Source: Patescibacteria group bacterium
Lineage (GTDB): Bacteria > Patescibacteriota > Patescibacteriia > 2-01-FULL-39-33
DNA: 32,000 nt
Assembly: GCA_041662745.1 (NCBI GenBank)
Contig: JBAZRV010000005.1
Coordinates: 60,001-92,000, forward strand
Reading direction: 5' to 3'
Made by a program: the position numbers and the translations under genes. The notes under the pieces were generated by a model. That model was not told where the DNA came from, did no database searches, and worked only from the letters and a program-made list of their open reading frames with translations. Shown here piece by piece: positions 1 to 30,213 of this stretch; within the stretch, counting starts at the first letter, position 1; every line of letters starts with the position of its first letter.

Positions 1-1
1 T

Positions 2-1258
2 ACCCTGACCGGACTGGTTATTGATCGCGATGTCTATAAATTTTACTTGTTAGACATTGTCATAGTATTATCTTTCGCCGCCCTGGCCGTCCGGCATTTT
101 ATCCTGCAAAAAAAGCGCCAATTGATCTGGGGCTGGCCGGAGACTATTCTCGCCTGCTTTATGCTATTAGTCGCGATCTATCTCTTCCGCTCATTGTTTG
201 ATATTAACGCAAAATTTGAAGTGGCTTTCAGTTCGTTTAAGAATTATTTTTTCTATCCCTTATTATATTTTTTCACTGTCTTAGTGGTACAGTCGCCCAA
301 AAGATTAAAACAAGTCAGCCAACTGATAATGCTTAACGGCGTTTTCCTGATCGCTTTCTTATTGATCGGTTTTGTCCGTGGTGCTGGCCTATGGACCGAA
401 TTCACTCCTCTGTCTACGGCCGGCGTACGCTACTTAGCCGGCACTCACGCCTTCTATCTGTTAATCGCTATAATGATCGGCGTACCGCTTTTAGCCTTTA
501 ACCGCTTGCGCAACCAGGGATTGGGGCTTTTGGTTTTCGCCTTATGGTCTCTGGGCGTGACAGTTTCCTTGATGCGCCATTTATGGCTGGCTGCAGTTAT
601 CGGCATCGCCGCCTTATTCATCTTAATGCCTTACCAAAACAAAAAATTCATTTCCCGCCAAGCGGTCAAAGCCGGATTATTAGTGGTGTCGCTGGCTTTA
701 GTCGCCATATTGGCGGCCAATCTCGCTTACTTTAATCCGGCCACAGAAACCGCCGCCGACAACGTTCGCCATGTCAGCGAAAGGCTGCTGTCGTTGGGAA
801 ACCTAAGTGAGGACACTTCTGCTTCTTGGCGTTTGGATCTCTGGAACGACGCCCGACAAGTCTGGCAAGCCAATCCGGTTGGGGGTATTGGTTTCGGCCA
901 CACGATCTTAATCGACATCGGCGACTATCAAAATTTTGAAGAAATCAGAAATATCCATAATTCGCCCCTGGCCATTATGGTGCAAATGGGCCTAGCGGGT
1001 CTGATTGTTTTTGTCCTGTTTATTGTGGCGGTTTTCAGTTCTGCTTGGCGTCCGGTTTACGCCAATTTCGATCTGATTCCCTACTATTTGGGCATTGCCG
1101 TCGCCGCTTTGATTTTTCTTTTCGCCAGCTGTTTTCAACCATACCTGGAAACCAACTTGATGGGTATTTGGTTTTGGATATTATTAGGTTTATTGCGTTC
1201 CGCGGCAATCATCAATAAGCCATTCAAGCACTCCGAACAAACAGTAACCGCCAAATAA
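2..1258 (+). CDS. O-antigen ligase / Wzy_C-like polytopic membrane protein (N-terminus probably off-window)
   Basis: The frame of track ORF 47..1258 stays open back to nt 2 with no stop, and the listed start is TTG, so the true start may lie upstream of the window. There are about ten hydrophobic helices. The loop WRLDLWNDARQVW..GGIGFGH..IHNSPLAIMVQMGLAG matches the pattern I associate with the Wzy_C/O-antigen-ligase family. The stop overlaps the next start (TAATG, 1256-1260). Confidence 0.65.
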   Translation, partial: TLTGLVIDRDVYKFYLLDIVIVLSFAALAVRHFILQKKRQLIWGWPETILACFMLLVAIYLFRSLFDINAKFEVAFSSFKNYFFYPLLYFFTVLVVQSPKRLKQVSQLIMLNGVFLIAFLLIGFVRGAGLWTEFTPLSTAGVRYLAGTHAFYLLIAIMIGVPLLAFNRLRNQGLGLLVFALWSLGVTVSLMRHLWLAAVIGIAALFILMPYQNKKFISRQAVKAGLLVVSLALVAILAANLAYFNPATETAADNVRHVSERLLSLGNLSEDTSASWRLDLWNDARQVWQANPVGGIGFGHTILIDIGDYQNFEEIRNIHNSPLAIMVQMGLAGLIVFVLFIVAVFSSAWRPVYANFDLIPYYLGIAVAALIFLFASCFQPYLETNLMGIWFWILLGLLRSAAIINKPFKHSEQTVTAK

Positions 1259-4200
1259 TGACTATGAAAATCCTGCAAGTCAATAAATTCTTATATCCCA
1301 AAGGCGGAGCGGAGACCTATCTTTTCGCCCTGTCCAACTTACTGATGGCTAATGGCCATGAGGTGATTTATTTTTCCCAAAAAAATCCTAAGAATATTAA
1401 AAACGATCAAGAAAAATATTTTGTCACTGATCTGGATCTGGGCCGATTCAATTTTAAGGCCCTGATGCTGATTTTCAGGATTTTCTGGTCTCCGCTGTCC
1501 CGCTACAAAATAAAAAAACTGATCAAAAAAGAACGGCCGGAATTAGCTCATATCCATAATATCTACCATCAATTATCGCCGGCTGTTTTAACCGGCCTTA
1601 AAGAATACGGCCTGCCGACGGTGATGACCGTGCATGATTTCAAGCTGGTAACCCCGGGCTATACCTTGCGAGCCGACGGCATCAAAAAACGCCATAAAGA
1701 TTCGTTTATTATTGACTGGCTGTTAAAACTGGAATTCGCTTTTCACCGCCTGATCAAAGTTTATGACCGGTGCATTGATATCTTTATCGCTCCCTCGCAG
1801 TTCGTCAAAAATGAACTGGTCAAGGCCGGCTATAAAACGGAAAAAATAGTCGTTATCCCCCACTTCATCAAAATGAACACTTTTAGTGTTCAGAGAAACA
1901 CTGGCAAATATTTTTTTACTTTCGGCCGGCTGGATGAAAGCAAGGGCCTGGATGATATCATTCGCGCTTTTGCCGCCCTGCCGGAAAACGGTTTAAAACT
2001 GAAAATCGCCGGCACCGGTCCGGAAGAAGAAAACTTGCGCCGATTGATTAAAGAATTCAAGGCGGAAAACCGCATTGAACTGCTGGGATTCAAGCAGGGG
2101 CAGGAATTATTGGATTTAATCGGCAACTCCTTAGCCGTGGTTTTTGCTTCCCGCGTCCATGAAACTTTCGGCCTGACCGTATTGGAGTCACTGGCGCTGG
2201 GCAAAGCCGTCATCGCTGCCAAAGTCGGAGCGATTCCTGAATTGATAAAAGACGGCCAAACCGGCTTACTGTTTGCCGTGGCTGATATCGGCGAGCTTAA
2301 AGAAAAAATGTCGCTAGTTCTAAATGACGACCAGTTGCGCCAAAAACTGGAGCGGGCGGGCCAAGCCCAAGCCAAGGAGTATTCGCCGGAAAGACACTAC
2401 GAACAATTGGCTGAGATTTATGACCGCTTAACCGCGCCGGGCAGCGCCGCCAAACGTAAAATCAAAAAAATCGCCCTCTCGATAATTCTGGCTATTTGCG
2501 CCCTGCTGATTATCTGGCCGATTTACTACATCGATGTCAATCGCAGTCGGGCTTTTATTGCGCCTCAACATGATTATCCCCGTCTGGCTAACCTATACTG
2601 GAAGAATCCGATTACTCTGGATGACGCCAAACAATTGGCCAAGTGGGACATAATCGTTTTGGACATGCAAACGCAAACCAACAGCGCCTCGGCGATCAAA
2701 GAAATCAAACGACTCAATCCTAAAGCGGTCATACTGGCTTACACCACAGCCAATGAAATGCCGGTGGAACGATTAAACCAGGTAGAGCCGTCAGGCTCGG
2801 GCCTATGGCACGAACTGACTCAAGGCGATAAATCAGCCTGGCGACTTAAAACCATATCCGGCGATAGCCTTGTTTTTTGGCCGGGCAATGTCATGATGAA
2901 CTTAGGCGCTAAAGATGAGACCGGCAAAACTTACGCCGATTTCCTGGCTGATTTCTATCAGAATAAAGTCCTGTCCACCGGCCTCTGGGATGGCCTTTTC
3001 TTTGATAACGTCTGGCAAAATGTGACTTGGTTCAATAAAAACGTTGATATTGATAATAACGGCCGGCAACGGCCGGCGGCGGAAATAGATTGGCAATGGC
3101 AAAACTACTATCGGGACTTTTTCCAAAAATTACGCGACCGCTTCGGTTCGCAATATTTAATCATCGGCAACGGCGACGGCGCTTACCACCAAGCAATCAA
3201 CGGCCGAATGTTTGAGTCATTTCCCGATTACTGGCAGGGTGGCTGGTCCGGCTCGCTTAAGAGCTATAACGAAACTAACGATAACGGCTACGCTCCTCGC
3301 CTGAACATTATTGAATCCAATACGGCTAACACCGGCAACCGCTACGATTACCAATCCCTGCGTTACGGCTTGACCTCAACTTTAATGTTTGACGGCTACT
3401 ACGCCTTCGGCTACGGCACCAATCTGCGCGAACAACTGTGGTGGTACGATGAATATGATGCCCAAATCGGCCAGCCCGTTTCCGATTCCTACAATCTGTT
3501 GGATCGCGATTCCAAACAATGGAAAACCGGCGTCTGGCAGAGAGATTTTGAATTCGGCACGGTAGTCGTTAATTCTACGGACCGACCGCAAACAATCTCA
3601 TTTGAAGGCGAATATGAAAAACTGCGAGGCACTCAAGACAAGCAGATTAATGACGGCGCCATCATTAACCGTCTGACCTTGGCCGCCAATGACGGCATAA
3701 TTATGATGCGACCGCTTAACACTATCGCCGATGCCGCGTATATCAACGGCTCGTTCGCCAGAATCTTTGACGGGCAAGGGAAAATAAAACGTAACGGCTT
3801 CTTCTCTTATGACAGTAATTTCAAGGGCAGCAATAAAATCCTTAAACTGGATATAAATAATGACGGTGAAAGGGAAACCGTGGTTGCCGGACTGAATTCC
3901 ATTACTTTATATGACAAGCACGGATTGGGAGTCAAGACTGTTTATCCCTACGGCGATCGCTTTGTCGGCGGACTAAGCCTGGCGCCGATTAAAATGGAAG
4001 ATAATAAATTTTGGCTGGCGGTCAGCCCGGAAAAAGGGGGCTCTAACTTGATTAAAATCTATGATTGGAATTTAGGCGATGCGGGCAAATCGTTCAACGC
4101 CTACGGCAGCCGGTGGCCCGCTTTAGGCGCCAATGTGGCGTCCGGCGATATTGACGGCGATGGCCGCAGCGAACTAATTGTCGGCGCCGGATTCGGCGGC

Positions 4201-4518
4201 GGACCGCACGTCAAAATATTTGATCTAAACGGCAACCTGAAAAGTGAATTCTTCGCCTATGCCAATAATTTCAGGGGCGGCGTCAATGTGGCCGCCGGAG
4301 ACACTAATGGCGACGGCCAAGATGAAATCATTACCGGCGCCGGGCAAACCGGCGGACCGCACATCAGAGTCTGGAATAATAATAAACTCATTGGCCAATG
4401 GTTCGGTTTTGACTCAAATAAACGCACCGGCGTCAAAGTAACCGCCACCGATGTTGACGGCGACGGCCGGGATGAGGTCATCGCCCTAACCACTAACGTA
4501 TTCATGACTAATAAATAA
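1258..4518 (+). CDS. Multidomain fusion: GT4 glycosyltransferase + TM helix + GH114/GHL-like TIM-barrel domain + FG-GAP repeat propeller
   Basis: aa 3-390 look like GT4 (KGGAETY; HETFGLTVLESLALGKAVIA, an E-x7-E-type motif). A TM helix lies at aa 404-424 (nt 2467-2529). aa ~437-815 carry WDIIVLD, WDGLFFDNVW (nt 2986-3015) and YLIIGNGD, which are glycoside-hydrolase-like TIM-barrel signatures. aa ~826-1080 hold four DxDxDG/FG-GAP units: DINNDGERETVVAG, GDIDGDGRSELIVGAG, GDTNGDGQDEIITGAG, TDVDGDGRDEVIA. Confidence 0.8.
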   Translation: MTMKILQVNKFLYPKGGAETYLFALSNLLMANGHEVIYFSQKNPKNIKNDQEKYFVTDLDLGRFNFKALMLIFRIFWSPLSRYKIKKLIKKERPELAHIHNIYHQLSPAVLTGLKEYGLPTVMTVHDFKLVTPGYTLRADGIKKRHKDSFIIDWLLKLEFAFHRLIKVYDRCIDIFIAPSQFVKNELVKAGYKTEKIVVIPHFIKMNTFSVQRNTGKYFFTFGRLDESKGLDDIIRAFAALPENGLKLKIAGTGPEEENLRRLIKEFKAENRIELLGFKQGQELLDLIGNSLAVVFASRVHETFGLTVLESLALGKAVIAAKVGAIPELIKDGQTGLLFAVADIGELKEKMSLVLNDDQLRQKLERAGQAQAKEYSPERHYEQLAEIYDRLTAPGSAAKRKIKKIALSIILAICALLIIWPIYYIDVNRSRAFIAPQHDYPRLANLYWKNPITLDDAKQLAKWDIIVLDMQTQTNSASAIKEIKRLNPKAVILAYTTANEMPVERLNQVEPSGSGLWHELTQGDKSAWRLKTISGDSLVFWPGNVMMNLGAKDETGKTYADFLADFYQNKVLSTGLWDGLFFDNVWQNVTWFNKNVDIDNNGRQRPAAEIDWQWQNYYRDFFQKLRDRFGSQYLIIGNGDGAYHQAINGRMFESFPDYWQGGWSGSLKSYNETNDNGYAPRLNIIESNTANTGNRYDYQSLRYGLTSTLMFDGYYAFGYGTNLREQLWWYDEYDAQIGQPVSDSYNLLDRDSKQWKTGVWQRDFEFGTVVVNSTDRPQTISFEGEYEKLRGTQDKQINDGAIINRLTLAANDGIIMMRPLNTIADAAYINGSFARIFDGQGKIKRNGFFSYDSNFKGSNKILKLDINNDGERETVVAGLNSITLYDKHGLGVKTVYPYGDRFVGGLSLAPIKMEDNKFWLAVSPEKGGSNLIKIYDWNLGDAGKSFNAYGSRWPALGANVASGDIDGDGRSELIVGAGFGGGPHVKIFDLNGNLKSEFFAYANNFRGGVNVAAGDTNGDGQDEIITGAGQTGGPHIRVWNNNKLIGQWFGFDSNKRTGVKVTATDVDGDGRDEVIALTTNVFMTNK

Positions 4519-4519
4519 T

Positions 4520-5671
4520 ATGCCAGAAGAAATAATCAAAGTTGAACCAAAGCCGATTGAAAAGAACCGCCGGCCGATCGCCCGAATCACTATCGGCACG
4601 CTTAATATCTTCCTGGTGCCGGCCAAAAAAAGATTCCATAAATTTTACCATCCGCAAAAAAACAGCAACTGGCTCTGGCATATTGCCGTAGACGGCTTGT
4701 TAGCTTTAGCGATCATTCTTATCACTGTCTTTAATATTTATATCTGGCTTAATCCGCCCCGATATGCCAATGATATTTCCAGTCTTCTGACTGCGGCTTT
4801 CTCTCAGCCGAGATTAGCGGTCGCCTTAAAAACCGGTGACAGCATTGTCAGCCCCGGCGGAAAACTGGTTTATCGCATTAAAGTCAAAAACGTCGGCCGC
4901 GCCTCCGCCAAAGATGTTACCGTCAATCTGCATATTGACAGCGAACTTTATGGCGGCGATAAAAAAATCATTTTTACCTCCGAGCAGGCTCCGGCTTTAG
5001 CAGAATTAAAACCTAACGCCGAACAGGAAGTCACTTACTCTTTCACGCTGAACAAAAATTTTGTTCAGCAAACCTCCGATCAAACCCAACCGGTTATTGT
5101 CTCCTATACTGAAGTATTATTTTACCCTGAGAACAATCTCAAAAAGCAGGTTATCGTCAGCGAGAAGTCAATCCAAAAAATCAGAAGCGTTATCGGACTG
5201 GAAGCTTTTAGCCGCTATCAATCTGCCGAGGGCGAACAGCTTGGCATCGGACCGAATCCTCCGCTGGCCGGATCAGCCACCCGCTATTGGATCTTCTTCG
5301 TTGCTAATACTAATTATAATGACGCTGAAAATTTCATAGCTACCGGCCATCTGCCGGATAATGTCCGCTTTACCGGACGCTCCAGCGCCTTAAGCGAAGA
5401 AGGCATCAGCTACAATCCTAACAATAGGATGATTGCTTGGCGACTTGATCGCGTAACCGCGCCCACTGATTTTTATTCAATTGTCGGCGCTTCATTAGAG
5501 GTGGAAATCATTCCCTGGCAAAGCCAATCCGGCCAAACAGCAACCCTGATTGATAACATAAAACTGACTGCTACCGATTCATTCACGGGAGAAGGGATAG
5601 AAAAAACCATAAAAGACATCACCACGGCCACTGCCGAGGAACCCGACGGCGGTCTGGTAAAAAGCAAGTAA
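4520..5671 (+). CDS. Membrane-anchored protein with DUF11/CARDB-like beta-sandwich domain
   Basis: The ATG lies 1 nt after the upstream stop, suggesting coupled translation. A basic N-terminus is followed by a TM helix (LWHIAVDGLLALAIILITVFNIYIWL). GGKLVYRIKVKNVGRASAKDVTVNL is the typical first strand pair of DUF11/CARDB-type repeats. Confidence 0.6.
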   Translation: MPEEIIKVEPKPIEKNRRPIARITIGTLNIFLVPAKKRFHKFYHPQKNSNWLWHIAVDGLLALAIILITVFNIYIWLNPPRYANDISSLLTAAFSQPRLAVALKTGDSIVSPGGKLVYRIKVKNVGRASAKDVTVNLHIDSELYGGDKKIIFTSEQAPALAELKPNAEQEVTYSFTLNKNFVQQTSDQTQPVIVSYTEVLFYPENNLKKQVIVSEKSIQKIRSVIGLEAFSRYQSAEGEQLGIGPNPPLAGSATRYWIFFVANTNYNDAENFIATGHLPDNVRFTGRSSALSEEGISYNPNNRMIAWRLDRVTAPTDFYSIVGASLEVEIIPWQSQSGQTATLIDNIKLTATDSFTGEGIEKTIKDITTATAEEPDGGLVKSK

Positions 5672-5695
5672 ATTCCGATGTTTTAGACCAAACTA

Positions 5696-5724
5696 TTGAC
5701 ATTTGTACCATTGTTTGCTATACT
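5696..5724 (+). promoter_or_regulatory. sigma70-type promoter TTGACA-17-TATACT
   Basis: TTGACA at 5696-5701, a 17-nt spacer, and TATACT at 5719-5724. It lies about 175 nt upstream of the ATG at 5899. Confidence 0.6.
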
Positions 5725-5898
5725 GATATATCAAGTTGGGATGTTCCCAACTGATGATAAGAACATTAAAAAAAGCTTAAAAAGGAGGAAGCGGCGCTGT
5801 GTGCCGCCAACTCAGGATGGGTAAGCGGCAATGTTGTCGCCCCCAATTTTAGGGCAAATTCGTACCGCTAAGGCGGGAAAACAAAAGGAGTTAAGCCC

Positions 5899-7260
5899 AT
5901 GCGTAAGGTATCGTTGTTGCTGGTTGGTTTGCTGGCCCTGTCGGCCATCGGTCTTGTCGGTTGCATGCCGGAGAAATTTATCGTTTCCGGCGACTTCTAC
6001 GTCCAAGCGGATGATCCGCGGGACGATGACTACTACCTGGGATCCGTTGACTTGACTGATGAGGCCAATATGCCCGTCGATTATTCGGACGCGGATTACG
6101 TCGTGTGGAACGTGGACACCGTTTTTAGTAGCGGTCGAACCATTCCGTTCGATTGGACAATTAGCAAGACCGGCGCCGATCCCGAAACTTCGGCCCCGCG
6201 AATCTGGCAAAAGGGTTCCAATCGCGCCGGCGTTAAAATGTCCCTGGACGGATCACGCTTCGGCCTGATCTTTGATGCCGCTGTCGGCTACAGCAATAGC
6301 GAGGGCGTCGGCATCACTACCTGGACGGCGCAAAAGTCCTGCCTGATGGCAACCGATTGGTCCGGCGAAGGCGAGGGTGAAGGTGAAGCGGTTCCCGTTA
6401 TCACCAATCAGCCCGATTCTTTGACGGCTAACGTCGGCCAGCAAGTACAATTCACGGTCGGCGCCACCGGCGGCAACCTGAAATACTGTTGGCAGGACAA
6501 CGGCATTGACATTACGCCCAATCAGTATTCGGGCGGAGTCAATTCGGCAACCCTCACGATTTACTCCATTGGAGAGATCAATGAGGGCGCCTATCGTTGT
6601 CGGGTCTGGAATAGCCAGGGATCGGTTTACTCCGATCCGGCCATTCTAACCATTACCAATGGTTCAACCGGTGATACTACTCCGCCGGTCATTACGCTTA
6701 ACGGCGCCTCCACGATTTATCTGTCAGTCGGCGGTTCCTGGGTTGACCCGGGCGCCACAGCCACAGATAATGTGGATGGCAATTTGACGTCAAAGATCAA
6801 TGTGACTGGCACCGTCAACACGGCAATCGCCGGAACATACCACCTAACCTACACAGCCAGCGACAACAGTGGCAATCAGGCCTCGGTAACGCGGACAGTC
6901 ATCGTTGGCAGTATCGCTCCCACGAGTGATCTGACGATCGCGTTGACATGGAACGGCAGTTACTTGTACCTTTCGGCCACGAACGCGCCGGCCAGCGGGA
7001 TTATTGGACTGGAACTATACCAGCCCAGCTACCCGTGGATTGAACGGGAAACCTACAATGTCTCGTCCGCCGGACTAGCTAATGGAACTGTCACCAAGTT
7101 CCGCTTCAATGTCAGCCGAACGATACGGTTCTCGGTGGTTACCAACGCCTCCAGCGGCGGTTATGTCGCCAATGATGCGGTAACGATTACCTTGAACGGA
7201 GCGACCGTACCGCTCGTCAATGACGGCAATGGTAACTGGGCCTTCCAAGCCGCCGTCTAA
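5899..7260 (+). CDS. Surface lipoprotein with I-set-like Ig domain and DUF5011/HYR-like Ig domain
   Basis: SD AAGGAG lies 8 nt before the ATG. The signal peptide carries lipobox LVGC (Cys22). A (GE)n linker sits at nt 6361-6387. aa 165-253 read PVITNQPDSLTANVGQQVQFTV..YCWQDNG..GAYRCRVWNSQGSV..AILTI, Ig I-set-like. aa 262-336 read PPVITLNG..GGSWVDPGATATDNVDGNLTSKI..AGTYHLTYTASDNSGNQAS..RTVIV, DUF5011-like. The C-terminal ~115 aa are unassigned. Confidence 0.8.
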   Translation: MRKVSLLLVGLLALSAIGLVGCMPEKFIVSGDFYVQADDPRDDDYYLGSVDLTDEANMPVDYSDADYVVWNVDTVFSSGRTIPFDWTISKTGADPETSAPRIWQKGSNRAGVKMSLDGSRFGLIFDAAVGYSNSEGVGITTWTAQKSCLMATDWSGEGEGEGEAVPVITNQPDSLTANVGQQVQFTVGATGGNLKYCWQDNGIDITPNQYSGGVNSATLTIYSIGEINEGAYRCRVWNSQGSVYSDPAILTITNGSTGDTTPPVITLNGASTIYLSVGGSWVDPGATATDNVDGNLTSKINVTGTVNTAIAGTYHLTYTASDNSGNQASVTRTVIVGSIAPTSDLTIALTWNGSYLYLSATNAPASGIIGLELYQPSYPWIERETYNVSSAGLANGTVTKFRFNVSRTIRFSVVTNASSGGYVANDAVTITLNGATVPLVNDGNGNWAFQAAV

Positions 7261-7283
7261 AAGTAAATAGCACTTTCCACCGT

Positions 7284-7320
7284 AGAGTGGCGACGATTAA
7301 ACCCGTTGCCACTCTTTTTT
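7284..7320 (+). terminator. Rho-independent terminator
   Basis: An 11-bp stem (agagtggcgac at 7284-7294 pairing with gttgccactct at 7305-7315, one G-U pair), a 10-nt loop, then a T-run to 7320. Confidence 0.8.
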
Positions 7321-7358
7321 AATTTAAAATTAGATAAAACTATTATTATTCACGGCTA

Positions 7359-7387
7359 TTGACAAAAAACTTTATATTTGATATAAT
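7359..7387 (+). promoter_or_regulatory. sigma70-type promoter TTGACA-17-TATAAT
   Basis: TTGACA at 7359-7364, a 17-nt spacer, and TATAAT at 7382-7387. The ATG at 7408 is only 20 nt past the -10, giving a very short leader with no clear SD. Confidence 0.65.
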
Positions 7388-7407
7388 GACATATCCTAAA
7401 GAAACTT

Positions 7408-8568
7408 ATGCGCATAGCGTTTATCGGCCAAAAAGGCATTCCTACTAGCCAGGGCGGAATCGAAAAACACGTTGAGGAACTCTCCACCAGACTGGTTGAG
7501 CAGGGTTTTGACGTTACCGTTTATGGCCGGCCGAATTATACCGGCGACAGTCGCAAAGAATATGAGTACCGCGGAGTCAAAATCATCCAACTCCCCTCTT
7601 TGGCGACCAAGCATTTAGACGCCATCACCCACACCTTTGTTGCTACCATCCACGCCTTATTCCAAAATTATGACATCATCCATTACCATGGCGTCGGCCC
7701 CTCGCTTTTATCTTTCATCCCGCGCTTATTAAAACCGCACGCCAAAGTAGTCGTCACCTTCCATTGCATTGACCGCACCCATCAGAAATGGGGTCGCTTT
7801 GCCCGTTTGGCTTTAGCTATCGGCGAATGGACTGCTGTTACCTTCCCTCATGAAACCATTGTCATTTCCAATATTTTAAAAAAGTACTGCCTTTACCGTT
7901 TTGACAAGGAATGCCGATACATTCCCAACGGCGTAGCCGTAAACCAGTCGGAAGAGGAGGAATACAGCCTAATCAAAAACGGTTTAATCGCCGGCGAATA
8001 TATTATTGCCGTTTCTCGCTTAGTGCCGCACAAGGGTATCCATACCCTGATCAAAGCTTACAGCTCTATCGCGACTGACAAAAAATTAGTCATTATCGGC
8101 GACGGCGCCAACACTGACGCTTATGTGGCTCAAATTAAAAGCTTGGCCAAGAGTAACCCCAGTATTATTTTAGCCGGACTGAAATCGGGTAACGAATTAG
8201 CGGCCCTATTTAAAAATGCCTACTTATTCGTTCAACCTTCGGAAGCCGAGGGCTTGTCTATCGCCTTACTGGAAGCCATGGCTTATGGCGTTCCGGCTAT
8301 TATCTCCAATATTGAAGAGAACCAAGAACCGGCCGAGGGTTTGGCCTTGGAGTTCATTAATAAATCCTGGGAGAGCTTGGCTAAAAAAATAGAATTCGCT
8401 TTAGCTAACTCAGTAGAAATAAAACGCTTGGCTGACTTGGCCCAAAAACGCGTGGCCACCGAATACGATTGGCAAGACATCGCGCAACAAACTTCCGCTC
8501 TGTATCGCGAACTGACCAAAGAAAAACAACTTGGAGTATTAACTGCCAAATATAAGCATAACGGCTAA
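7408..8568 (+). CDS. Glycosyltransferase family 4 (DUF1972-type N-terminal half, RgpA/WchF-like)
   Basis: The N-terminus MRIAFIGQKGIPTSQGGIEKHVEELSTRL is the pattern I associate with DUF1972. The C-terminal half carries the GT4 E-x7-E motif PSEAEGLSIALLEAMAYGVPAI. Confidence 0.85.
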   Translation: MRIAFIGQKGIPTSQGGIEKHVEELSTRLVEQGFDVTVYGRPNYTGDSRKEYEYRGVKIIQLPSLATKHLDAITHTFVATIHALFQNYDIIHYHGVGPSLLSFIPRLLKPHAKVVVTFHCIDRTHQKWGRFARLALAIGEWTAVTFPHETIVISNILKKYCLYRFDKECRYIPNGVAVNQSEEEEYSLIKNGLIAGEYIIAVSRLVPHKGIHTLIKAYSSIATDKKLVIIGDGANTDAYVAQIKSLAKSNPSIILAGLKSGNELAALFKNAYLFVQPSEAEGLSIALLEAMAYGVPAIISNIEENQEPAEGLALEFINKSWESLAKKIEFALANSVEIKRLADLAQKRVATEYDWQDIAQQTSALYRELTKEKQLGVLTAKYKHNG

Positions 8569-8676
8569 AACCAAAGTCGTTCTGTTTGTTTTGAGATGGA
8601 TAATCTAAGTTTTCGGACATTACAATGCAATCAAACCGTCTACGCCAAAAACATGGCGAGACAAAAAGGAGAAAAC

Positions 8677-9051
8677 ATGCATATTTTACTTAGTTGGTTT
8701 ATTGGATTATCGCTTTTAGGCACAGCAATCGGATGTGTTTATATGAAAAAATATAAAAGCAGGTTTTATATCATAACGCTCATAATATTGACGGCGTTTG
8801 TTTTCTTTGCTATCGGCTTAATGACTTTTATCGGCAATCCAGTATCATTATCTAAGCTTAAAACCGATACCGTCTATCAGGTTGTAGGCCAGCATCGCGA
8901 CGCGGATAACGGCTTTATTACTACAGTCAAAGCGCCGAATGGCGCTTTCAGATTGATTAAATGCAAAGAACAAGTACCTGAATTGTTCATTGTCAAGCAC
9001 TCGTTTTGGGATGGCAAGATAACGATCGAAGAGTTTATGATAAAGCACTAA
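8677..9051 (+). CDS. Hypothetical small membrane protein (2 TM + soluble tail)
   Basis: The internal ATG at 8677 is preceded by AAAGGAG (8665-8671). Two hydrophobic helices are present and no family was recognised. The track start at 8596 lacks an SD. Confidence 0.55.
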   Translation: MHILLSWFIGLSLLGTAIGCVYMKKYKSRFYIITLIILTAFVFFAIGLMTFIGNPVSLSKLKTDTVYQVVGQHRDADNGFITTVKAPNGAFRLIKCKEQVPELFIVKHSFWDGKITIEEFMIKH

Positions 9052-9074
9052 TCCACAATCAAGAACCTTATCCG

Positions 9075-9111
9075 CCCCGCGCAGCGATTTGCTGACGCGG
9101 GGTTTTATTTT
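9075..9111 (+). terminator. Rho-independent terminator
   Basis: ccccgcg (9075-9081) pairs with cgcgggg (9096-9102), followed by TTTTATTTT. Confidence 0.8.
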
Positions 9112-9138
9112 GTTCTTCTCCTGTTTTTGTGTTATAAT
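9110..9138 (+). promoter_or_regulatory. Promoter with extended -10 (TTGTTC-17-TGtTATAAT)
   Basis: TTGTTC at 9110-9115 and TATAAT at 9133-9138, preceded by TG at 9130-9131. It lies 35 nt upstream of the pilB ATG. Confidence 0.5.
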
Positions 9139-9172
9139 AATATCAATTAATCCACCCGGAAGGTGACAAACT

Positions 9173-10891
9173 ATGCTTAACCAAAAAGATTTGGAAGAGA
9201 TTTTGCTCCAAAGCAAAATTTTAGAAACCAAACAAATCAAAGAATACTCCGACAAGGCCCGTCAGGCCAATAAAAAGCTGGAGGATTTTTTGGTTGACAA
9301 AAAAATCATCGCCCCCAATTTGCTGTACGAATCGGCGGCCAAATATTACGATCTGCCCTATATTGATCTCAAAAATCAAACTATCCGCAAGGATATCCTA
9401 TTCACCATCCCCGAAGTAACGGCCAGCGCCCACAAAACCATAGCTTTTGACAAAACCACCAAGGAACTCAAAGTCGCCACACTGGATATCTCCAATATTG
9501 AACTGTTTGATTTCTTAGCCAAAAAAACCGGCTTAGAGGTCCTGCTTCATTTGACTTCTCCGGATAATATCAAAGACGCGCTCAAACAATATCATAAAGG
9601 ATTGTCAGCCGACATCAAAACGATTGAAGAAGAAGAGAGCGAAGAAAAACCGGAAAACCTCAAATCCCTGGCTCAAGATCTGCCGGTGGTGCGCATCGTG
9701 GACACCCTGTTAGAGTACGCCATTCTGGAAAAGGCCTCGGACATCCATATTGAGCCCTCCGACCAGGACGTAGCCGTACGCTACCGTATTGACGGCATGT
9801 TGCGTAAAGTCATGACTCTGCCCAAAACCGCTCATGCCGGCATTATCGCCAGAATCAAAATCCTGTCTAACTTAAAATTAGACGAACACCGCCTGCCCCA
9901 AGACGGGCGCTTCAAAATAAAAAGCCAAGACTACCAGGTCTCTTTTCGCGTTTCCATCATCCCGACTTTTGACGGCGAGAAAGCGGTTTTGCGCCTTCTG
10001 CCCGATACGGCCCAACAAATGACTTTGGAACAACTGGGCTTTCAACCTCAGGCGCTGGACGTGGTTAAACGCAACATCGTCAAGCCGCACGGCATGATTC
10101 TGGTTACCGGTCCGACCGGCTCCGGCAAAACCACCACCCTGTACACCATGTTGCAAGTCCTTAACAAACCGGAAGTAAATATTTCCACGGTTGAAGATCC
10201 GATTGAATACAAAATGCCCGGCATCAACCAATGCCAAGTCCAACCGAAAATAGGCTTTACTTTTGCCGCGGCCCTGCGCTCCTTTTTGCGCCAAGATCCC
10301 AACATTATCCTGGTCGGAGAAATCCGCGACAATGAAACCGCCGACATTGCCATAAACGCCGCCATGACCGGCCACTTGGTCTTATCCACCTTGCACACTA
10401 ACGACGCGGCCACCTCCATCCCCCGTTTGACCGACATGAATGTGCCGACTTTCTTAATCTCCTCAACCCTTAACTTGATTATCGCCCAACGCTTGGTCAG
10501 GAAAATCTGCAAAAATTGCATTGAAAGTTATAATCTAGACAAAAAGGGCGTCATGGAATTGGAAAAAGAATTCAACCTAAGCGCGGTAGAAAAAAGCCTG
10601 TCAGAACTGGGCATGTTAGGCAAAAAACAAAAGCTTAAAGACACCTTGTTTTTTCGCGGCCGCGGCTGCCAGCAATGCGATAATTCCGGCTACAAAGGCC
10701 GCATCGGCATCTATGAAACATTGGAAATAAATGACAAGATATCGGCGATGATCTTAAGCAAGGCGACGCGCGACGAATTGCAGAAAGCCGCGATTGAAAA
10801 CGGCATGGTAACGATTATGTTGGACGGTTTCATCAAGGCTAAGACCGGTGTCACCTCCATTGAGGAAGTGTTAAGAGTAACGAAAGAATAA
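9173..10891 (+). CDS. pilB: Type IV pilus assembly ATPase PilB (GspE family)
   Basis: Has an N-terminal T2SSE_N-like domain, Walker A GPTGSGKTT, the Asp/His boxes (ILVGEIRD, TGHLVLSTLHTN) and a tetracysteine zinc motif CKNC...CQQC. SD-like GGAAGGTGA lies upstream. Confidence 0.95.
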   Translation: MLNQKDLEEILLQSKILETKQIKEYSDKARQANKKLEDFLVDKKIIAPNLLYESAAKYYDLPYIDLKNQTIRKDILFTIPEVTASAHKTIAFDKTTKELKVATLDISNIELFDFLAKKTGLEVLLHLTSPDNIKDALKQYHKGLSADIKTIEEEESEEKPENLKSLAQDLPVVRIVDTLLEYAILEKASDIHIEPSDQDVAVRYRIDGMLRKVMTLPKTAHAGIIARIKILSNLKLDEHRLPQDGRFKIKSQDYQVSFRVSIIPTFDGEKAVLRLLPDTAQQMTLEQLGFQPQALDVVKRNIVKPHGMILVTGPTGSGKTTTLYTMLQVLNKPEVNISTVEDPIEYKMPGINQCQVQPKIGFTFAAALRSFLRQDPNIILVGEIRDNETADIAINAAMTGHLVLSTLHTNDAATSIPRLTDMNVPTFLISSTLNLIIAQRLVRKICKNCIESYNLDKKGVMELEKEFNLSAVEKSLSELGMLGKKQKLKDTLFFRGRGCQQCDNSGYKGRIGIYETLEINDKISAMILSKATRDELQKAAIENGMVTIMLDGFIKAKTGVTSIEEVLRVTKE

Positions 10892-10898
10892 AATAATT

Positions 10899-11966
10899 AT
10901 GGCGAATCTAAATCAAATGTTTATCAGCCTGCAACGCGTGCCGGAAACGGCAAAAATCTTCATGTTGCAAAACCTGTCTGTCATGATTAAGGCCGGACTG
11001 CCGTTGGCCGACGCCTTGAATATTCTCTCGGAACAAGGCAAGAGCGCCAAGTTAAAAATGGTCCTAGGCGAAATACAGCAACAAATTCGCGGCGGCAAAA
11101 GTTTCGCCGAGGCCCTCTTGCCCTATCAGCGCGATTTCGGCGAAATGTTCGTTAATATGATTGCCGCCGGCGAAGCCTCCGGCAACTTGGAGGGCGTCTT
11201 GAATAATCTTTATATCCAACTCAAAAAAGACCACACCATCAAAAGCAAGATCAAAAACGCCATGATCTACCCGATTATTATTGTCTGCGCCATGATTGCC
11301 TTAAGCATTTTCGTTATGATTTATGTCCTGCCCAACATTACCTCAATGTTCAAAGACCTGGAGGCGGGCTTGCCCCTGCCGACCAAAATACTTATAGCTG
11401 TCAGTAATTTTGTTACGACTAACGGCCTGATTTTGGGGCCGTTGATTGTTTTGCTTTTTATTCTTCTTTGGCGCCTTACCCGTTCCGGCCCGTTGCGTCT
11501 GCTGTGGCATCAATTAATACTAAAAACACCGATCATCGGCCCGATTTCCATTAAAATAAATGTTGCCAGGATGTCCGCGGCCCTGAGTTCCCTAATTCAA
11601 ACCGACATTCCCATTCCCGATAGCTTAAAAATCACCGCCAAAATAATGTCCAACGCGGTTTATAGGCAAGCATTAATGGAGGCGTCGGAAAAAATAAAAA
11701 AAGGCATTAAGCTGGCGGATGTTTTCAAACAATACCAAGTCTTTCCGGTTATTATCATTCAAATGGTGGCGGTCGGCGAAGAAACCGGCTCGTTGGATGC
11801 GGTCTTAAAAAATTTAGCGGAATTCTATCAGGAAGAAGTGGAACAAACCATGGAATCGCTGCCCACGATCATTGAACCGCTACTGATGATTTTAATGGGA
11901 TTCGGCGTGGGCGGTTTGGCCATCGCCATTATTCTGCCGATCTACTCCATGACTTCTCAATTCTAA
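10899..11966 (+). CDS. pilC: Type IV pilus platform protein PilC (GspF family)
   Basis: Two GspF-type repeats (GKSFAEAL..FGEMFVNMIAAGEASGNLE and GIKLADVF..FPVIIIQMVAVGEETGSLD) and three TM helices. It starts 7 nt after pilB. Confidence 0.9.
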   Translation: MANLNQMFISLQRVPETAKIFMLQNLSVMIKAGLPLADALNILSEQGKSAKLKMVLGEIQQQIRGGKSFAEALLPYQRDFGEMFVNMIAAGEASGNLEGVLNNLYIQLKKDHTIKSKIKNAMIYPIIIVCAMIALSIFVMIYVLPNITSMFKDLEAGLPLPTKILIAVSNFVTTNGLILGPLIVLLFILLWRLTRSGPLRLLWHQLILKTPIIGPISIKINVARMSAALSSLIQTDIPIPDSLKITAKIMSNAVYRQALMEASEKIKKGIKLADVFKQYQVFPVIIIQMVAVGEETGSLDAVLKNLAEFYQEEVEQTMESLPTIIEPLLMILMGFGVGGLAIAIILPIYSMTSQF

Positions 11967-12019
11967 ATGGTTCTCGCTTTATTAAGCATCGCCCGATCAA
12001 TGGTAAGACGAACTCGCGT

Positions 12020-12511
12020 ATGAGCAAATCAGAAAAGAAATTACATTTTGCCGGCCCCCCAACCGTCCGGTGCAACCTGGCCGGTTTTTCTTTATTGGAG
12101 TTAGTGGTGGTAATCGCCTTACTCGGCATTATCACCGGCGTCGGCCTGCCTTATTATCAAAGCTTCACCGTCAGCCTGCAATTGCAGGGTGCGGCGCGCG
12201 ATTTGACTTCCGATTTGCGTTACGCCCAACAACAGGCCGTCACCACCCAAAACAATTATCAAGTGGTTTTTGATATCAATCAAAATCTCTACACCGTAGA
12301 AAACGCCTCCAGCGGATTATTGATAAAATCCCGCGTCATTAAAAGTCCGATCAGCTTGGAATCAACCACCTTAGCCTCCTCAACCGCCGTCTTTAATGCC
12401 ACGGGCGCAGCCGTTTCTTCGGGCAATGTCATCCTATCCAATTCTAACGGCCGTCACGCCACTATAGATATAAAACCCTCCGGCTATGCCCAAATATCAT
12501 TCTCCTACTGA
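12020..12511 (+). CDS. Minor pilin, GspH/FimT-like prepilin
   Basis: Class III signal NLAG|FSLLELVVVIALLGII with Glu+5. The following LQGAARDLTSDLRYAQQQAV resembles the GspH/FimT domain. The leader is 22 aa if the ATG at 12020 is used. Confidence 0.75.
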   Translation: MSKSEKKLHFAGPPTVRCNLAGFSLLELVVVIALLGIITGVGLPYYQSFTVSLQLQGAARDLTSDLRYAQQQAVTTQNNYQVVFDINQNLYTVENASSGLLIKSRVIKSPISLESTTLASSTAVFNATGAAVSSGNVILSNSNGRHATIDIKPSGYAQISFSY

Positions 12512-12917
12512 AGCAGGCATTTCCATCCTGGAAGCCATCTTGGCTATTGCCGTCCTGGCTATGGCTATTTTGGGCATTATTCAAATCTTCCCCTTGGCCC
12601 TAAAAATGTCGCGCATCGCCGAACAAACCACGGTGGCGGCCAACCTGGCCCAAGCTCAGGCTGAAACAATCCACTCCTTAAATTACAGTGAAATTAGCAC
12701 TGGCGCCATTGAGGCCAGGCATCGTTTGGCCAGTGATCCGGCCAATCCCTTTTACAAATACGAAAGGCAAACAGTGGTGGATTATGTTGATGGCGATCTG
12801 AACAATTCGGCCACGGATTTAGGATTAAAAAAAATTTCCATTACGGTTTATTGGCTGTCTTCTTATTTGAATAAAGAAATAACCTTCCCGTTAACCTTTT
12901 TAATCAGCGAAAAATAA
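12486..12917 (+). CDS. Minor pilin, PilV/GspI-like prepilin
   Basis: TEAG|ISILEAILAIAVLAMAILG carries Gly-1 and Glu+5. The gene overlaps the upstream gene by 26 nt. Confidence 0.7.
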   Translation: MPKYHSPTEAGISILEAILAIAVLAMAILGIIQIFPLALKMSRIAEQTTVAANLAQAQAETIHSLNYSEISTGAIEARHRLASDPANPFYKYERQTVVDYVDGDLNNSATDLGLKKISITVYWLSSYLNKEITFPLTFLISEK

Positions 12918-14760: not shown

Positions 14761-14812
14761 TGAACCGGACAATCAAAGTTAATAAAATCTAAAAAATTAT
14801 AAACAATAAAAA

Positions 14813-14841
14813 TTGAGACCTTAAACAAAAAATGCTATAAT
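14813..14841 (+). promoter_or_regulatory. sigma70-type promoter TTGAGA-17-TATAAT
   Basis: TTGAGA at 14813-14818, a 17-nt spacer, and TATAAT at 14836-14841, upstream of pilM. Confidence 0.6.
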
Positions 14842-14899
14842 ATAATCATTAAGCCAAACTTTTAACTTATAAATTATCGCCTTTGCCGGTTTTAACACT

Positions 14900-17059: not shown

Positions 17060-17060
17060 T

Positions 17061-25080: not shown

Positions 25081-25117
25081 AAATAGGGTAAAAAGGCTAT
25101 AATTTATATGTAAATTG

Positions 25118-25146
25118 ATTATATCAACTATTCGTAAAATAATCAA
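25118..25146 (-). promoter_or_regulatory. Promoter TTGATT-17-TATAAT (minus strand) for the recombinase
   Basis: Read on the minus strand, TTGATT is at 25146->25141 and TATAAT at 25123->25118. Confidence 0.45.
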
Positions 25147-28697: not shown

Positions 28698-29150
28698 CTA
28701 TTCAATTCTTACTTCATCACCTGCCCTAATCCCGTGGCTGGCGACGAAACCGGCGTTGGCCTCTAATACCATATTTACCGGGCCGGGCGAAGCATAAAGC
28801 TCAGTTGGTCGCTCCCCTGCCGGCGGCAGATTCTCACTGGCGCCGACGACCTGATTATCTTTTAACCAAATGATATCCAAAGGAAAATTCATATCTTTCA
28901 TCCAAAAACTGCGAGCGGACGGAGCGTTATAGACAAACAACATGCCACAATCGGCGCACAAGGACCGGCGATCGGATAAACCCTTGATTTTATCCGCTTC
29001 GGTCGTTACCAATTCCACTTTGATTTTTTTCTCGCCGAAATAAACATGTTTATCAGCTTTATCGGCCGTCTTAATGGCAGTACAGCCGGTTAGCAACAAA
29101 CCGGAAAACAAGGCGAACGACAAAATTAAGCTTTTTTTGATTTGACCCAT
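28698..29150 (-). CDS. DUF192 domain lipoprotein
   Basis: MGQIKKSLILSFALFSGLLLTGC is a lipoprotein signal peptide. MNFPLDIIWL resembles the DUF192 core. Confidence 0.75.
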   Translation of the reverse strand: MGQIKKSLILSFALFSGLLLTGCTAIKTADKADKHVYFGEKKIKVELVTTEADKIKGLSDRRSLCADCGMLFVYNAPSARSFWMKDMNFPLDIIWLKDNQVVGASENLPPAGERPTELYASPGPVNMVLEANAGFVASHGIRAGDEVRIE

Positions 29151-30178
29151 AAGGCGACGGAAATTATTGCCATAACCAAAACCAAACAAATAATCAATAT
29201 CATTTTACCAGAACTGGTTGAAATAATTCCCAAGGAGCCAAAGGCCAGGGCGATCAGCCACAAGAGCCAAACCGCCTGGGTGTGCGATAAGCCCAAGCCG
29301 AGCAAGCGGTAATGCAAGTGATTGCGATCGCCGGCGAACGGCGATTTGCCGGAAATTAAGCGACGTATAATCACCAGCAGAACATCCAGGGCCGGCAAAC
29401 CCATCACCAGTAGCGTAGTAATGATTTTTGAGCCGGAAACAATGGAGAGCACCCCCAACAAAAATCCGATGAATACGGAACCGCCCTCGCCCAAAAAAAT
29501 TGAGGCCGGGCGCCAATTGTAAATCAAAAAACCGAGCGCTGCCCCCAAAAGCAACAAGGCCCAAATGCCTGTCGCCGACAACGGCGCATCCCAACGCAAA
29601 GAAACCAAAAAAATAAACAACGCGGCAATAGTGGCGATGCCGGCCACCAAACCGTCCAAACCGTCCAAAAACTTAGTGGTATAGGCCATGCCCAAGAGCC
29701 AAAAAAACACGATGGCTATGCCCAAATACTTGCCAATAAACAAAACGGCTCCGGATTGGCTTAAGGGATTGGTGATAAAAGCTATATGCAGCCCCGACAA
29801 TAAAACAACGATAACGGCGAAGACAGGGAAAAATATTTGCTGTTGCGGTTTAAGGCTGTATTTATCGTCAATCGTGCCGCCGATCATCAATATCAAACAA
29901 GCAAGAAAAATGCCCCAGAGCAAGCAATCGTTAATCAAAGAAAAATCCGCCAAATTAAAAAATCTAAAAATAAAAACACCGGCAAAAACCGATAAAAATA
30001 TCGCCCACCCGCCCATGAAAGGCACCGGATTCTGATGGATCTTGCGTTCGGCCGCCTGCGGTTTATCCATAATATCAAAACGCCGGGCCACCAATTTGAC
30101 TAACGGGGTCAAACCGACGGCCAACAAAAAAGACAGCAAAATAGCGCCAAAATAAATGATGGGATCATTGTCATTCAT
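29126..30178 (-). CDS. Polyprenyl-phosphate sugar-1-phosphate transferase, MraY/WecA family (glycosyltransferase family 4 membrane enzyme)
   Basis: About ten TM helices, GGTIDDKYSL, and the motif TKFLDGLDGLVAG. Its size fits a WecA/TagO-like enzyme better than MraY. The start is placed at the ATG at 30178, because the track's TTG at 30193 overlaps the -10 hexamer. Confidence 0.85.
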   Translation of the reverse strand: MNDNDPIIYFGAILLSFLLAVGLTPLVKLVARRFDIMDKPQAAERKIHQNPVPFMGGWAIFLSVFAGVFIFRFFNLADFSLINDCLLWGIFLACLILMIGGTIDDKYSLKPQQQIFFPVFAVIVVLLSGLHIAFITNPLSQSGAVLFIGKYLGIAIVFFWLLGMAYTTKFLDGLDGLVAGIATIAALFIFLVSLRWDAPLSATGIWALLLLGAALGFLIYNWRPASIFLGEGGSVFIGFLLGVLSIVSGSKIITTLLVMGLPALDVLLVIIRRLISGKSPFAGDRNHLHYRLLGLGLSHTQAVWLLWLIALAFGSLGIISTSSGKMILIICLVLVMAIISVALWVKSKKA

Positions 30179-30184
30179 GCCATA

Positions 30185-30213
30185 ATTATACAAAAATCTT
30201 GGCTAAAATTCAA
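30185..30213 (-). promoter_or_regulatory. Promoter TTGAAT-17-TATAAT (minus strand), -10 only 6 nt from ATG
   Basis: Read on the minus strand, TTGAAT is at 30213->30208 and TATAAT at 30190->30185, followed by tatggc and then the ATG at 30178. Confidence 0.55.

Follow-up and report, generated by a model that had tools for sequence, protein, structure and literature searches.

A groundwater Patescibacteria open reading frame that joins an adjacent gene pair of a conserved, probable surface-glycan pathway

Why would a bacterium carry a sugar-adding enzyme for the cytoplasm and a glycoside hydrolase-like barrel for the cell exterior in one polypeptide chain? The question is raised by an open reading frame (ORF) in a 32,000-nucleotide (nt) stretch of a groundwater Patescibacteria genome (contig JBAZRV010000005.1, positions 60,001 to 92,000), called the window here. 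Members of the Patescibacteria, or Candidate Phyla Radiation, are numerous in nature and for the most part uncultured; they are believed to live on hosts, and little to nothing is known of their surface glycans. The ORF encodes a family 4 glycosyltransferase (GT4) domain, a transmembrane (TM) helix, a barrel of the GHL15/GH168 type, and an FG-GAP propeller, parts that are otherwise encoded by an adjacent pair of genes in a conserved, probable surface-glycan pathway. The features discussed below are collected in Table 1.

Reading from the ATG at nt 1258 to the stop codon at nt 4518 revealed zero internal stops, in agreement with the uninterrupted 1,086-residue ORF described in an initial annotation made from the sequence. 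The four parts and their order also stand as described there: Pfam matches, hydropathy, and structural models place the GT4 domain first, followed by the TM helix, the TIM barrel, and the FG-GAP propeller. All of the families predicted at that stage (PF00534/PF13439, PF14885, and PF13517/PF01839) were found above their gathering scores, and the motifs quoted were located at residues 463 to 469 (WDIIVLD), at residues 577 to 586 (WDGLFFDNVW), and around N638 (the IIGNGD motif). Likewise, a hydropathy scan placed the one hydrophobic helix expected after the GT4 domain at residues 405 to 423, the sole hydrophobic segment of the protein (Kyte-Doolittle 19-residue mean of 2.63, with a next-best value elsewhere of 1.53). 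No N-terminal signal peptide was found in a scan of the fused protein sequence. As the net charge flanking the helix is +4 on the N-terminal side, where the stretch KRKIKK lies, and 0 on the C-terminal side, the GT4 domain is predicted to be inside and the remainder of the protein outside the membrane (N-in/C-out).

The same full architecture was detected in 15 other proteins (50 to 88% identity, 1,084 to 1,100 residues) in a search that covered 5.8 billion proteins, and these originated from JGI, Logan, ENA, and NCBI assemblies. Approximately 10 further fused proteins (P0016 to P0025) consist of the GT4 domain, the TM helix, and the GHL15 barrel without the propeller. Thus, the GT4-GHL15 junction is common to about 25 independent metagenome proteins, and in all fused relatives a hydrophobic helix lies there, with basic residues ahead of it. 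At the DNA level, nt 1263 to 6781 of the window align with a Candidatus Buchananbacteria metagenome-assembled genome (MAG; JBAYFY010000008.1, locus L001) as one collinear 5.5-kb high-scoring segment pair with 82% identity, which crosses both domain junctions with the frame preserved. A long ORF could in principle arise from a misjoin or from a sequencing frameshift that deleted the stop codon between two genes, and indeed, close relatives (L003, L005, and L006) have two genes with an ATGA overlap, while a run of seven A residues lies in the linker of the window gene at nt 2464. However, because the junction recurs in independent assemblies, with 16 full-length and about 10 propeller-less fused proteins keeping the basic stretch and TM linker, and because L001 is collinear over both junctions, a misjoin or frameshift is very unlikely. 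The linker of the fused forms is, moreover, a proper internal TM helix and not a read-through signal peptide. We therefore rate the likelihood of an artefact as close to negligible, and the search for the same domain order in other genomes, together with the L001 alignment, excludes the assembly chimerism against which the initial annotation had advised checking.

The barrel is the part of the protein whose assignment changed most. PF14885 (GHL15) matched residues 484 to 768 over profile positions 1 to 271 of 271 (E value of 3.9e-22, 79.9 to 83.1 bits against a cut-off of 27). An AlphaFold2 model of residues 430 to 818 was predicted with high confidence (predicted local distance difference test score [pLDDT] of 92.5, predicted template-modelling score [pTM] of 0.91) and is a barrel with glycoside hydrolase matches, as the hydrolase-like TIM barrel proposed at the outset required. 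The top 14 Foldseek matches in the PDB were all GH168 structures (Rho5174 9f9v, PbFucA 8rg3, 9nhf, 9jom, and others), with E values of 1e-17 to 1e-12, TM-scores of 0.58 to 0.70, and 12 to 18% identity. The GH114 structure 9ep6 was next (E value of 6e-9, TMq of 0.45), followed by GH191, GH13, and GH31. A profile built from 25 diverse barrel sequences found PbFucA in the PDB with an E value of 1.5e-12. This profile was derived from a barrel-only alignment, as the profile of the full-length alignment (A1) gave dominating GT4 matches. When the barrel was used as a single query sequence for phmmer, the PDB yielded nothing meaningful; the GH168 relationship was seen only by the family profile and the fold search. 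The same profile also detected 9nhf, a GH168 structure deposited as a "GHL15 protein," and as it matches both this entry and PbFucA, the Pfam "hypothetical" family GHL15 now corresponds to CAZy GH168. In contrast, scanning the barrel alone returned only PF14885, and as PF03537 (GH114) gave no match even at an E value of ≤1, membership in GH114 fails. The GH114/GHL assignment of the initial annotation, which had expected PF03537 or a PF14885-like match, is thus replaced by GH168 as the nearest family, with GH114 more remote.

The model also shows a small C-terminal beta-sandwich behind the barrel, which is the layout of GH168 enzymes (PMC11685898). These enzymes use an Asp on strand beta4 as the nucleophile and a Glu on strand beta6 as the acid/base in a retaining double-displacement reaction (PMC11685898), and the catalytic pairs are D206/E264 in Fun168A, D184/E254 in PbFucA, and D172/E243 in WfGH168_II (PMC11685898, PMC12534559). 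The counterparts in the window protein, D583 and E653, are invariant in alignments A1, A2, and A4 (25 to 34 diverse homologues). According to the hidden Markov model (HMM) alignment, Y495, N638, and W729 correspond to Y99, N218, and W332 of the GH168 −1 subsite. The residues that recognize sulfate differ. In GH168 enzymes, the 2-O-sulfate at subsite −1 is bound by Asn101 together with a strictly conserved "polar knuckle" Lys (K66 of WfGH168_II), which has been called the most distinctive GH168 feature (PMC12534559). In a sequence alignment, read without structural superposition, the Lys is replaced by M470 (Fun168A "IEK" aligns with "LDM" in the window protein), and Asn101 is replaced by T497, so that the Y-x-N motif reads Y495-T-T497. 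The apparent loss of these sulfate-binding residues and the biosynthetic context point to another substrate, and the barrel would almost certainly not act on sulfated fucan. Judged by its residues, it is a catalytically competent-looking, divergent GH168/GHL15 domain.

Two further sequence features distinguish this subfamily. The loop DIDNNG (window nt 3046 to 3063, residues 597 to 602) lies just past the nucleophile strand, with a family consensus of IDIDxDG in which D597 is nearly invariant. In the profile alignment, this DxDxxG insert falls opposite a gap in the GH168 structures, and it may form a subfamily-specific metal site near the active site. The octapeptide WWYDEYDA (window nt 3439 to 3462, residues 728 to 735) is invariant in 25 barrels down to approximately 29% identity, where GH168 has WYPEFD, and its conservation far exceeds that of the rest of the barrel domain.

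The N-terminal domain was matched by PF13439 at residues 16 to 204 (4e-22, 79.5 bits against a cut-off of 28.5) and by PF00534 at residues 213 to 369 (7e-36, 123.7 bits against a cut-off of 26.4). The EX7E motif is a GT4 signature. It is intact here (E302-TFGLTVL-E310) and kept in the consensus of the fused orthologues. The closest solved relatives identified by a profile search were BshA-type and other non-processive GT4 enzymes, whereas the PelF model NF038011 reached 39.7 bits against a cut-off of 100, which places the domain outside that family. The domain is predicted to be a retaining nucleotide-sugar transferase.

The C-terminal domain was matched by PF01839 (58.3 bits) and PF13517 (49.6 bits), both above threshold, on residues 815 to 1086. 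The AlphaFold2 model of these 272 residues (pLDDT of 94.1, pTM of 0.92) is all beta with 21 strands, which would form about five four-stranded blades and a closing strand, a count that was read from the DSSP string and not from coordinates. Integrin propellers have seven blades. Foldseek matches were generic (E value of about 1e-5, TM-score of about 0.5) and included BBS2, NHL domains, integrin-alpha heads, and the integrin-like fungal lectin PVL; the integrin heads aligned only in part (TMt of 0.18 to 0.38). According to the model, the domain is therefore a compact propeller of the FG-GAP type without a close solved relative, and the FG-GAP part of the earlier "integrin-like" description holds, with a modelled blade number that differs from that of integrins. 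The role in anchoring or presenting the product that was suggested with it is conjectural. The four DxDxDG units reported initially exist as loops, but only two of them, DIDGDG (964) and DVDGDG (1065), are strict DxDxDG motifs; DINNDG (865) and DTNGDG (1015) are not, and one more loop of this kind is the DIDNNG of the barrel. The propeller probably binds calcium. Propeller-less relatives (P0016 to P0025; e.g., P0019 on a 91-kb contig) stop directly past the beta-sandwich. As about 10 fused relatives end at this point, the propeller is dispensable in some lineages, and as such forms interleave with propeller-bearing ones on the barrel tree, it was apparently lost more than once.

How widespread is the fusion? 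Relatives of the ectodomain were present in 56 GTDB species genomes, nearly all of them Patescibacteria (Buchananbacteria, Uhrbacteria, Falkowbacteria, Kerfeldbacteria, and Magasanikbacteria). A search with the ectodomain alone yielded at least 1,062 clusters at 90% identity, nearly all of which were stand-alone proteins of 660 to 720 residues with their own signal peptides, annotated by NCBI as "putative glycoside hydrolase." At 50%-identity resolution, a long N-terminal extension was present in 5 of about 100 full-length matches. The count of 74,465 from the representative search (E value of ≤1e-3) is inflated by generic FG-GAP proteins and was not used as the family size. In most loci, an orthologous GT4 gene (30 to 38% identity over the full length) lies directly or closely upstream of the GHL15 gene, and downstream of it come a DUF11-like gene and a further GT4 gene. 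This cassette (Wzy_C, one or more GT4, GHL15-FG-GAP, DUF11-like, GT4) recurs in distant Patescibacteria, at times preceded by a radical S-adenosylmethionine (SAM) gene. The architecture is not a system of its own: a pair of separate genes is the very common form, and the fusion is a rare version of it that is restricted to certain lineages. The cassette is also carried, with 30 to 55% identity, by many TPA_asm MAG records that bear the title "uncultured Gammaproteobacteria bacterium" (L003 to L005, L007, L012, and others); these labels are probably generic or wrong.

The best explanation for the fused gene is a merger of two adjacent, overlapping genes. In L003, L005, and L006 (50 to 55% identical), the GT4 and GHL15 genes are separate and overlap by 4 bp (ATGA), and the second gene starts with a signal peptide; in the fused protein, the TM helix sits where the split orthologues carry this signal peptide. 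The A7 run of the window gene (nt 2464 to 2470), located in the KRKIKK linker codons just before the helix, could plausibly be a point of slippage through which fused and split forms interconvert. When the barrel sequences were placed on a neighbour-joining tree, built without support values, fused forms occurred in at least 4 to 5 places. As they are scattered among split forms, repeated fusion or fission is suggested, and the fusion appears to be polyphyletic. Other cytoplasmic enzymes are joined to the same ectodomain: one protein (P0145, L057 nt 7943 to 10831) is a GT2-TM-GHL15-FG-GAP fusion, and another (P0246) is a radical SAM-GHL15-FG-GAP fusion. Because GT4, GT2, and radical SAM enzymes are all found fused to it, the GHL15 module would, by "Rosetta-stone" reasoning, work in the same pathway as cytoplasmic glycan-building enzymes. 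In sister lineages, the GT4 is fused to a methyltransferase instead, and P0039 (L059 nt 6966 to 8972), P0050, P0051, P0063, and P0064 comprise GT4-methyltransferase and GT4-radical SAM/SPASM proteins. These sequences hint that the glycan of the cassette is methylated or radical-SAM modified. Ten proteins of about 820 residues (P0027 and P0030 to P0038) that had been considered as divergent carriers of a C-terminal barrel were rejected, as they are tandem double-GT4 proteins.

The pathway itself can be read from the neighbouring genes. Immediately upstream of the fused gene is a gene encoding a Wzy_C-family membrane protein. The two genes form part of a tight operon and share a nucleotide at their junction, TAATG, in which the TAA stop of the first runs into the ATG of the second. 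The Wzy_C frame has no in-frame stop before nt 47, and its L001 orthologue has 509 residues. The Wzz position lies past the left edge of the window. In L059 and L061, the gene preceding Wzy_C is matched by Wzz PF02706, and the L001 homologue is 42% identical without a Pfam match of its own. A PF00953 protein encoded farther along the window scored 109 bits with the WecA model TIGR02380 and 51 bits with MraY, both below the equivalog cut-offs, and is probably an initiating phosphoglycosyl transferase. An assignment as MraY was rejected on these scores. In L001 and L002, the cassette is instead closely preceded by the gene for a true MraY, which has the MraY signature motif. Neither PelD, PelE, or PelG, nor a deacetylase or a Gtb3-like synthase, was found nearby, and the window contains no other pel genes. 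As Wzy_C, a Wzz-like protein (in syntenic loci), extra GT4 enzymes, and a WecA-like protein are present, the context is of the Wzy type and not of the Pel or galactosaminogalactan (GAG) type. The GT4 domain is therefore most likely a single-addition repeat-unit transferase rather than a polymerase, and the polymerizing synthase activity originally ascribed to it falls more readily to the Wzy protein. A PglL/PilO-type O-glycosylation role of the Wzy_C gene, considered in view of an adjacent type IV pilus cluster, is less favoured than polymerization because a Wzz gene is present in the syntenic loci.

We favour, with moderate confidence, a reading in which the fused ORF encodes a bitopic, probably bifunctional enzyme of a Wzy-type surface-glycan pathway that couples glycosylation of the repeat unit inside the cell to trimming or transglycosylation outside. 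The GT4 domain, tethered to the membrane by the TM helix, would act in the cytoplasm and add one sugar, from a donor and to an acceptor that are both conjectural, to a polyprenyl-linked repeat unit that a WecA-like enzyme would start and the other GT4 of the cassette would extend. After flipping along this putative lipid-linked route, the Wzy_C protein and its Wzz-like partner would polymerize or transfer the glycan at the outer face. The GH168-like barrel would then cleave or transglycosylate the pathway's own non-sulfated polymer via the retaining pair Asp583/Glu653, the choice between hydrolysis and transglycosylation being conjectural as well, and would serve in trimming, release, or re-routing of the polymer in a PslG-like manner. 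The propeller may hold the glycan, the wall, or a partner such as the DUF11-like protein, whose gene directly follows that of the GHL15-FG-GAP protein in most related loci throughout the phylum and which is a likely partner or substrate. Several observations weigh against this reading. None of the best NCBIfam matches of the GT4 domain (BshA, Agl16, PglJ, EpsE, and others) comes near its cut-off; the topology of the fused protein is a prediction from sequence; and the WecA-like gene, at a distance of 25 kb from the cassette, scores below the equivalog cut-off. Neither the window nor any cassette examined revealed a flippase of the Wzx type. The Wzy_C family also includes WaaL ligases and PglL/PilO O-oligosaccharyltransferases, and polymerization by the Wzy_C protein is therefore not proven. 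Finally, about 10 of the fused relatives manage without the propeller to which a holding role is given.

An alternative, which we consider unlikely, is that the outer domain is biosynthetic, acting as a retaining transglycosylase or ligase that takes chains made by Wzy and links them with one another or attaches them to the wall or a surface protein. Retaining double-displacement mechanisms permit transglycosylation. GH168 enzymes use such a mechanism (PMC11685898), and Ags1p pairs an extracellular GH13 transglycosylase, a TM region, and an intracellular GT-B synthase (PMC5753165). The near-universal presence of the ectodomain in the cassette and its strict conservation (WWYDEYDA, D583, E653, and R702) would fit an essential biosynthetic step, and the cassettes examined contained, apart from the Wzy_C protein, no recognizable ligase of the LCP or WaaL type. 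However, every characterized GH168 is a hydrolase, the sequence holds no feature that separates this domain from one, and the multi-TM export domain of Ags1 has no counterpart in the fused protein. A more specific form of the idea, which we regard as speculative and quite unlikely, would make the ectodomain a non-degradative enzyme, the missing extracytoplasmic "ligase/transglycosylase" of an envelope-glycan machinery specific to Patescibacteria. Its task would be to link the polymer produced by Wzy, which may carry methyl groups or radical-SAM modifications, to the wall or the DUF11-like protein, and the recurrent fusions to GT4, GT2, and radical SAM enzymes would reflect a trans-membrane complex in which cytoplasmic and surface steps are coupled. 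If true, GH168/GHL15 would have a part in biosynthesis, and a large, uncultured radiation would have an envelope pathway as its hallmark.

The ectodomain might instead be a nutrient-scavenging glycosidase, or one with which an episymbiont attacks the surface of its host, its fusion to the GT4 being a neutral accident of gene packing in a streamlined genome without a shared pathway. The characterized GH168 enzymes are indeed catabolic fucanases, the genes of the cassette have overlaps of 1 to 4 nt that would make fusion by a small indel easy, and fused and split forms alternate among close relatives on the neighbour-joining tree. Nevertheless, the GHL15-FG-GAP gene keeps its Wzy_C, GT4, and DUF11-like neighbours down to about 30% identity, three different cytoplasmic enzymes of the cassette have been fused to the ectodomain, always in a topologically sensible order, and the residues for recognition of sulfated fucan are absent. 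No sugar-uptake or catabolic genes were adjacent in the window or in the loci examined, and we judge this explanation to be very unlikely. Even less credible is a Pel- or GAG-like synthase system, in which the GT4 would polymerize and a GH114-like domain would trim the product. A GT4 and a TIM-barrel glycoside hydrolase are both there, GH114 is a detectable structural relative, and several PDB depositors label GH168 proteins "GH114 TIM-barrel domain-containing protein." Yet the PelF score and the missing PF03537 match speak against it, GH168 matches approximately nine orders of magnitude better than GH114, and Wzy_C and, in syntenic loci, a Wzz-like protein take the place of the Pel and GAG components. 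Furthermore, with one TM helix the protein has no export channel. Overall, such a system is highly improbable.

Table 1. Coordinates of the features discussed, as positions in the window
Feature	Position (nt)	Strand	Basis and remarks
Fused ORF (GT4, TM helix, GH168-like barrel with beta-sandwich, FG-GAP propeller)	1258..4518	+	1,086 residues; orthologues P0001 to P0015 have the same architecture
Cytoplasmic GT4 domain (GT-B fold, retaining type)	1258..2442	+	Residues 1-395; PF13439, PF00534, PF13692; EX7E at E302-E310
Single TM helix	2470..2526	+	Residues 405-423; hydropathy and flanking charges; KRKIKK just N-terminal; predicted N-in/C-out
Extracytoplasmic (beta/alpha)8 barrel, GHL15/GH168 type	2566..3531	+	Residues 437-758; PF14885, AlphaFold2 pLDDT 92.5, Foldseek GH168, profile match to PbFucA
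Codon of D583, predicted nucleophile	3004..3006	+	Beta4, WDGLFFD; aligns with PbFucA D184
Codon of E653, predicted general acid/base	3214..3216	+	Beta6, RMFESFP; aligns with PbFucA E254
Small beta-sandwich after the barrel	3532..3708	+	Residues 759-817; strands at model residues 330-388
FG-GAP beta-propeller, about five blades	3736..4491	+	Residues 827-1078; PF01839, PF13517; four Dx[DN]x[DN]G calcium-loop-like motifs
Wzy_C-family membrane protein (O-antigen polymerase/ligase-like)	1..1258	+	PF04932, 3.5e-16, 59.8 bits against 31.7; runs off the left window edge
DUF11/CARDB-like TM-anchored surface protein	4520..5671	+	PF01345, PF07705; start lies 1 nt past the stop codon of the fused gene
Ig-like surface lipoprotein, LVGC lipobox	5899..7260	+	PF16403 and Ig domains; syntenic in L001
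Second GT4 (GT4b)	7408..8568	+	PF00534, PF13439; kept downstream in many loci
WecA/TagO-like polyprenyl-phosphate sugar-1-phosphate transferase	29126..30193	−	PF00953; 25 kb from the cassette

Several other features of the window lie downstream of the fused gene. The C-terminal domain of the DUF11-like protein (gene at nt 4520 to 5671) is 42% identical to a 251-residue protein at the matching position of L059. The gene for the Ig-like lipoprotein is a putative transcription unit of its own, with an 11/12 promoter-like site (nt 5696 to 5724) and a terminator-like site with a 12-bp stem (nt 7284 to 7315), and a perfect 12/12 promoter-like site (nt 7359 to 7387) precedes the second GT4 gene. A type IV pilus cluster (PilB, PilC, a GspH-like pseudopilin, PilM, PilN, and several unannotated small genes) occupies nt 9173 to 17555, directly downstream of the cassette, and the same adjacency of pilus genes and cassette is present in L059 and L061. 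A region of low GC content (0.36 to 0.42) with a reversal of GC skew (nt 24265 to 27050) lies beside a XerA/integron-integrase-like tyrosine recombinase (nt 24265 to 25170); it contains only small ORFs without family matches and may be a small integrated element. Scans of the window for tRNAs and Rfam families gave no matches.

The family of every part of the fused protein is already known, and so is the theme of a biosynthetic cluster with its own glycosidase. What is new is the GH168/GHL15 domain in a biosynthetic, membrane-tethered context, the conserved surface-glycan cassette of Patescibacteria, and the recurrent fusions to one ectodomain. In the literature searched, no description was found of this GH168/GHL15 placement or of the cassette with its fusions, and the statement of the initial annotation that the architecture is not a described one holds for the same literature. 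The fusion itself is a modest evolutionary variant and not a new kind of system. The analysis defines the cassette (Wzz-like, Wzy_C, one or more GT4, GHL15-FG-GAP, DUF11-like, and a further GT4) in dozens of species-level genomes and more than 1,000 protein clusters, and it extends GH168/GHL15, so far reported only from marine fucoidan degraders, to a new context with altered substrate-binding residues.

Among known proteins, the stand-alone GHL15-FG-GAP proteins of Patescibacteria (about 680 residues) are orthologous to residues 430 to 1086 (30 to 60% identity) and share the barrel, beta-sandwich, propeller, invariant residues, and neighbourhood. They differ in having their own signal peptide or anchor and a separate upstream GT4, where the fused protein has an internal TM helix. 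The GH168 endo-alpha-1,3/1,4-L-fucanases Fun168A, PbFucA, and Rho5174 (PF14885) resemble the barrel in profile (E value of 1.5e-12) and structure (E value of 1e-17, TM-scores of 0.63 to 0.70) and share the beta4 Asp, the beta6 Glu, and the three −1 subsite residues. However, they are only 16 to 18% identical, bear Lys and Asn101 where the window protein has Met470 and Thr497, and have no DxDxxG loop after beta4. They are encoded in fucoidan-utilization loci, whereas the window barrel is membrane tethered, is followed by a propeller, and belongs to a biosynthetic cassette of non-marine Patescibacteria.

The synthase-dependent pairs PelF/PelA and Ega3/Sph3 likewise combine a glycosyltransferase with a dedicated TIM-barrel hydrolase, and GH114 (Ega3 type) is a remote structural relative, but neither PelF membership nor any other Pel or GAG component applies here, where a GH168-type barrel lies in a Wzy-type context. 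In function, the closest precedent would be PslG, and in architecture, Ags1p. PslG of Pseudomonas aeruginosa is a periplasmic endoglycosidase in the Wzx/Wzy-dependent Psl pathway and has been proposed as a fail-safe or trimming enzyme acting on the pathway's own polymer (PMC13434223). It is similarly an extracytoplasmic endoglycosidase encoded within a Wzy-dependent cluster, yet it belongs to another family (GH39), is separate from any glycosyltransferase, lacks a propeller, and works with diderm export machinery (PslD/PslE). The fungal alpha-1,3-glucan synthase Ags1p/AgsB unites a glycoside hydrolase-type TIM barrel outside and a retaining GT-B enzyme inside the cell in one chain and thereby couples synthesis to processing outside the cell (PMC5753165). 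In contrast to the window protein with its single TM segment, it is a eukaryotic, processive synthase of unrelated families with a multi-TM export domain and the reverse order, in which the GH13 domain is outside and N-terminal and the GT5 domain is inside.

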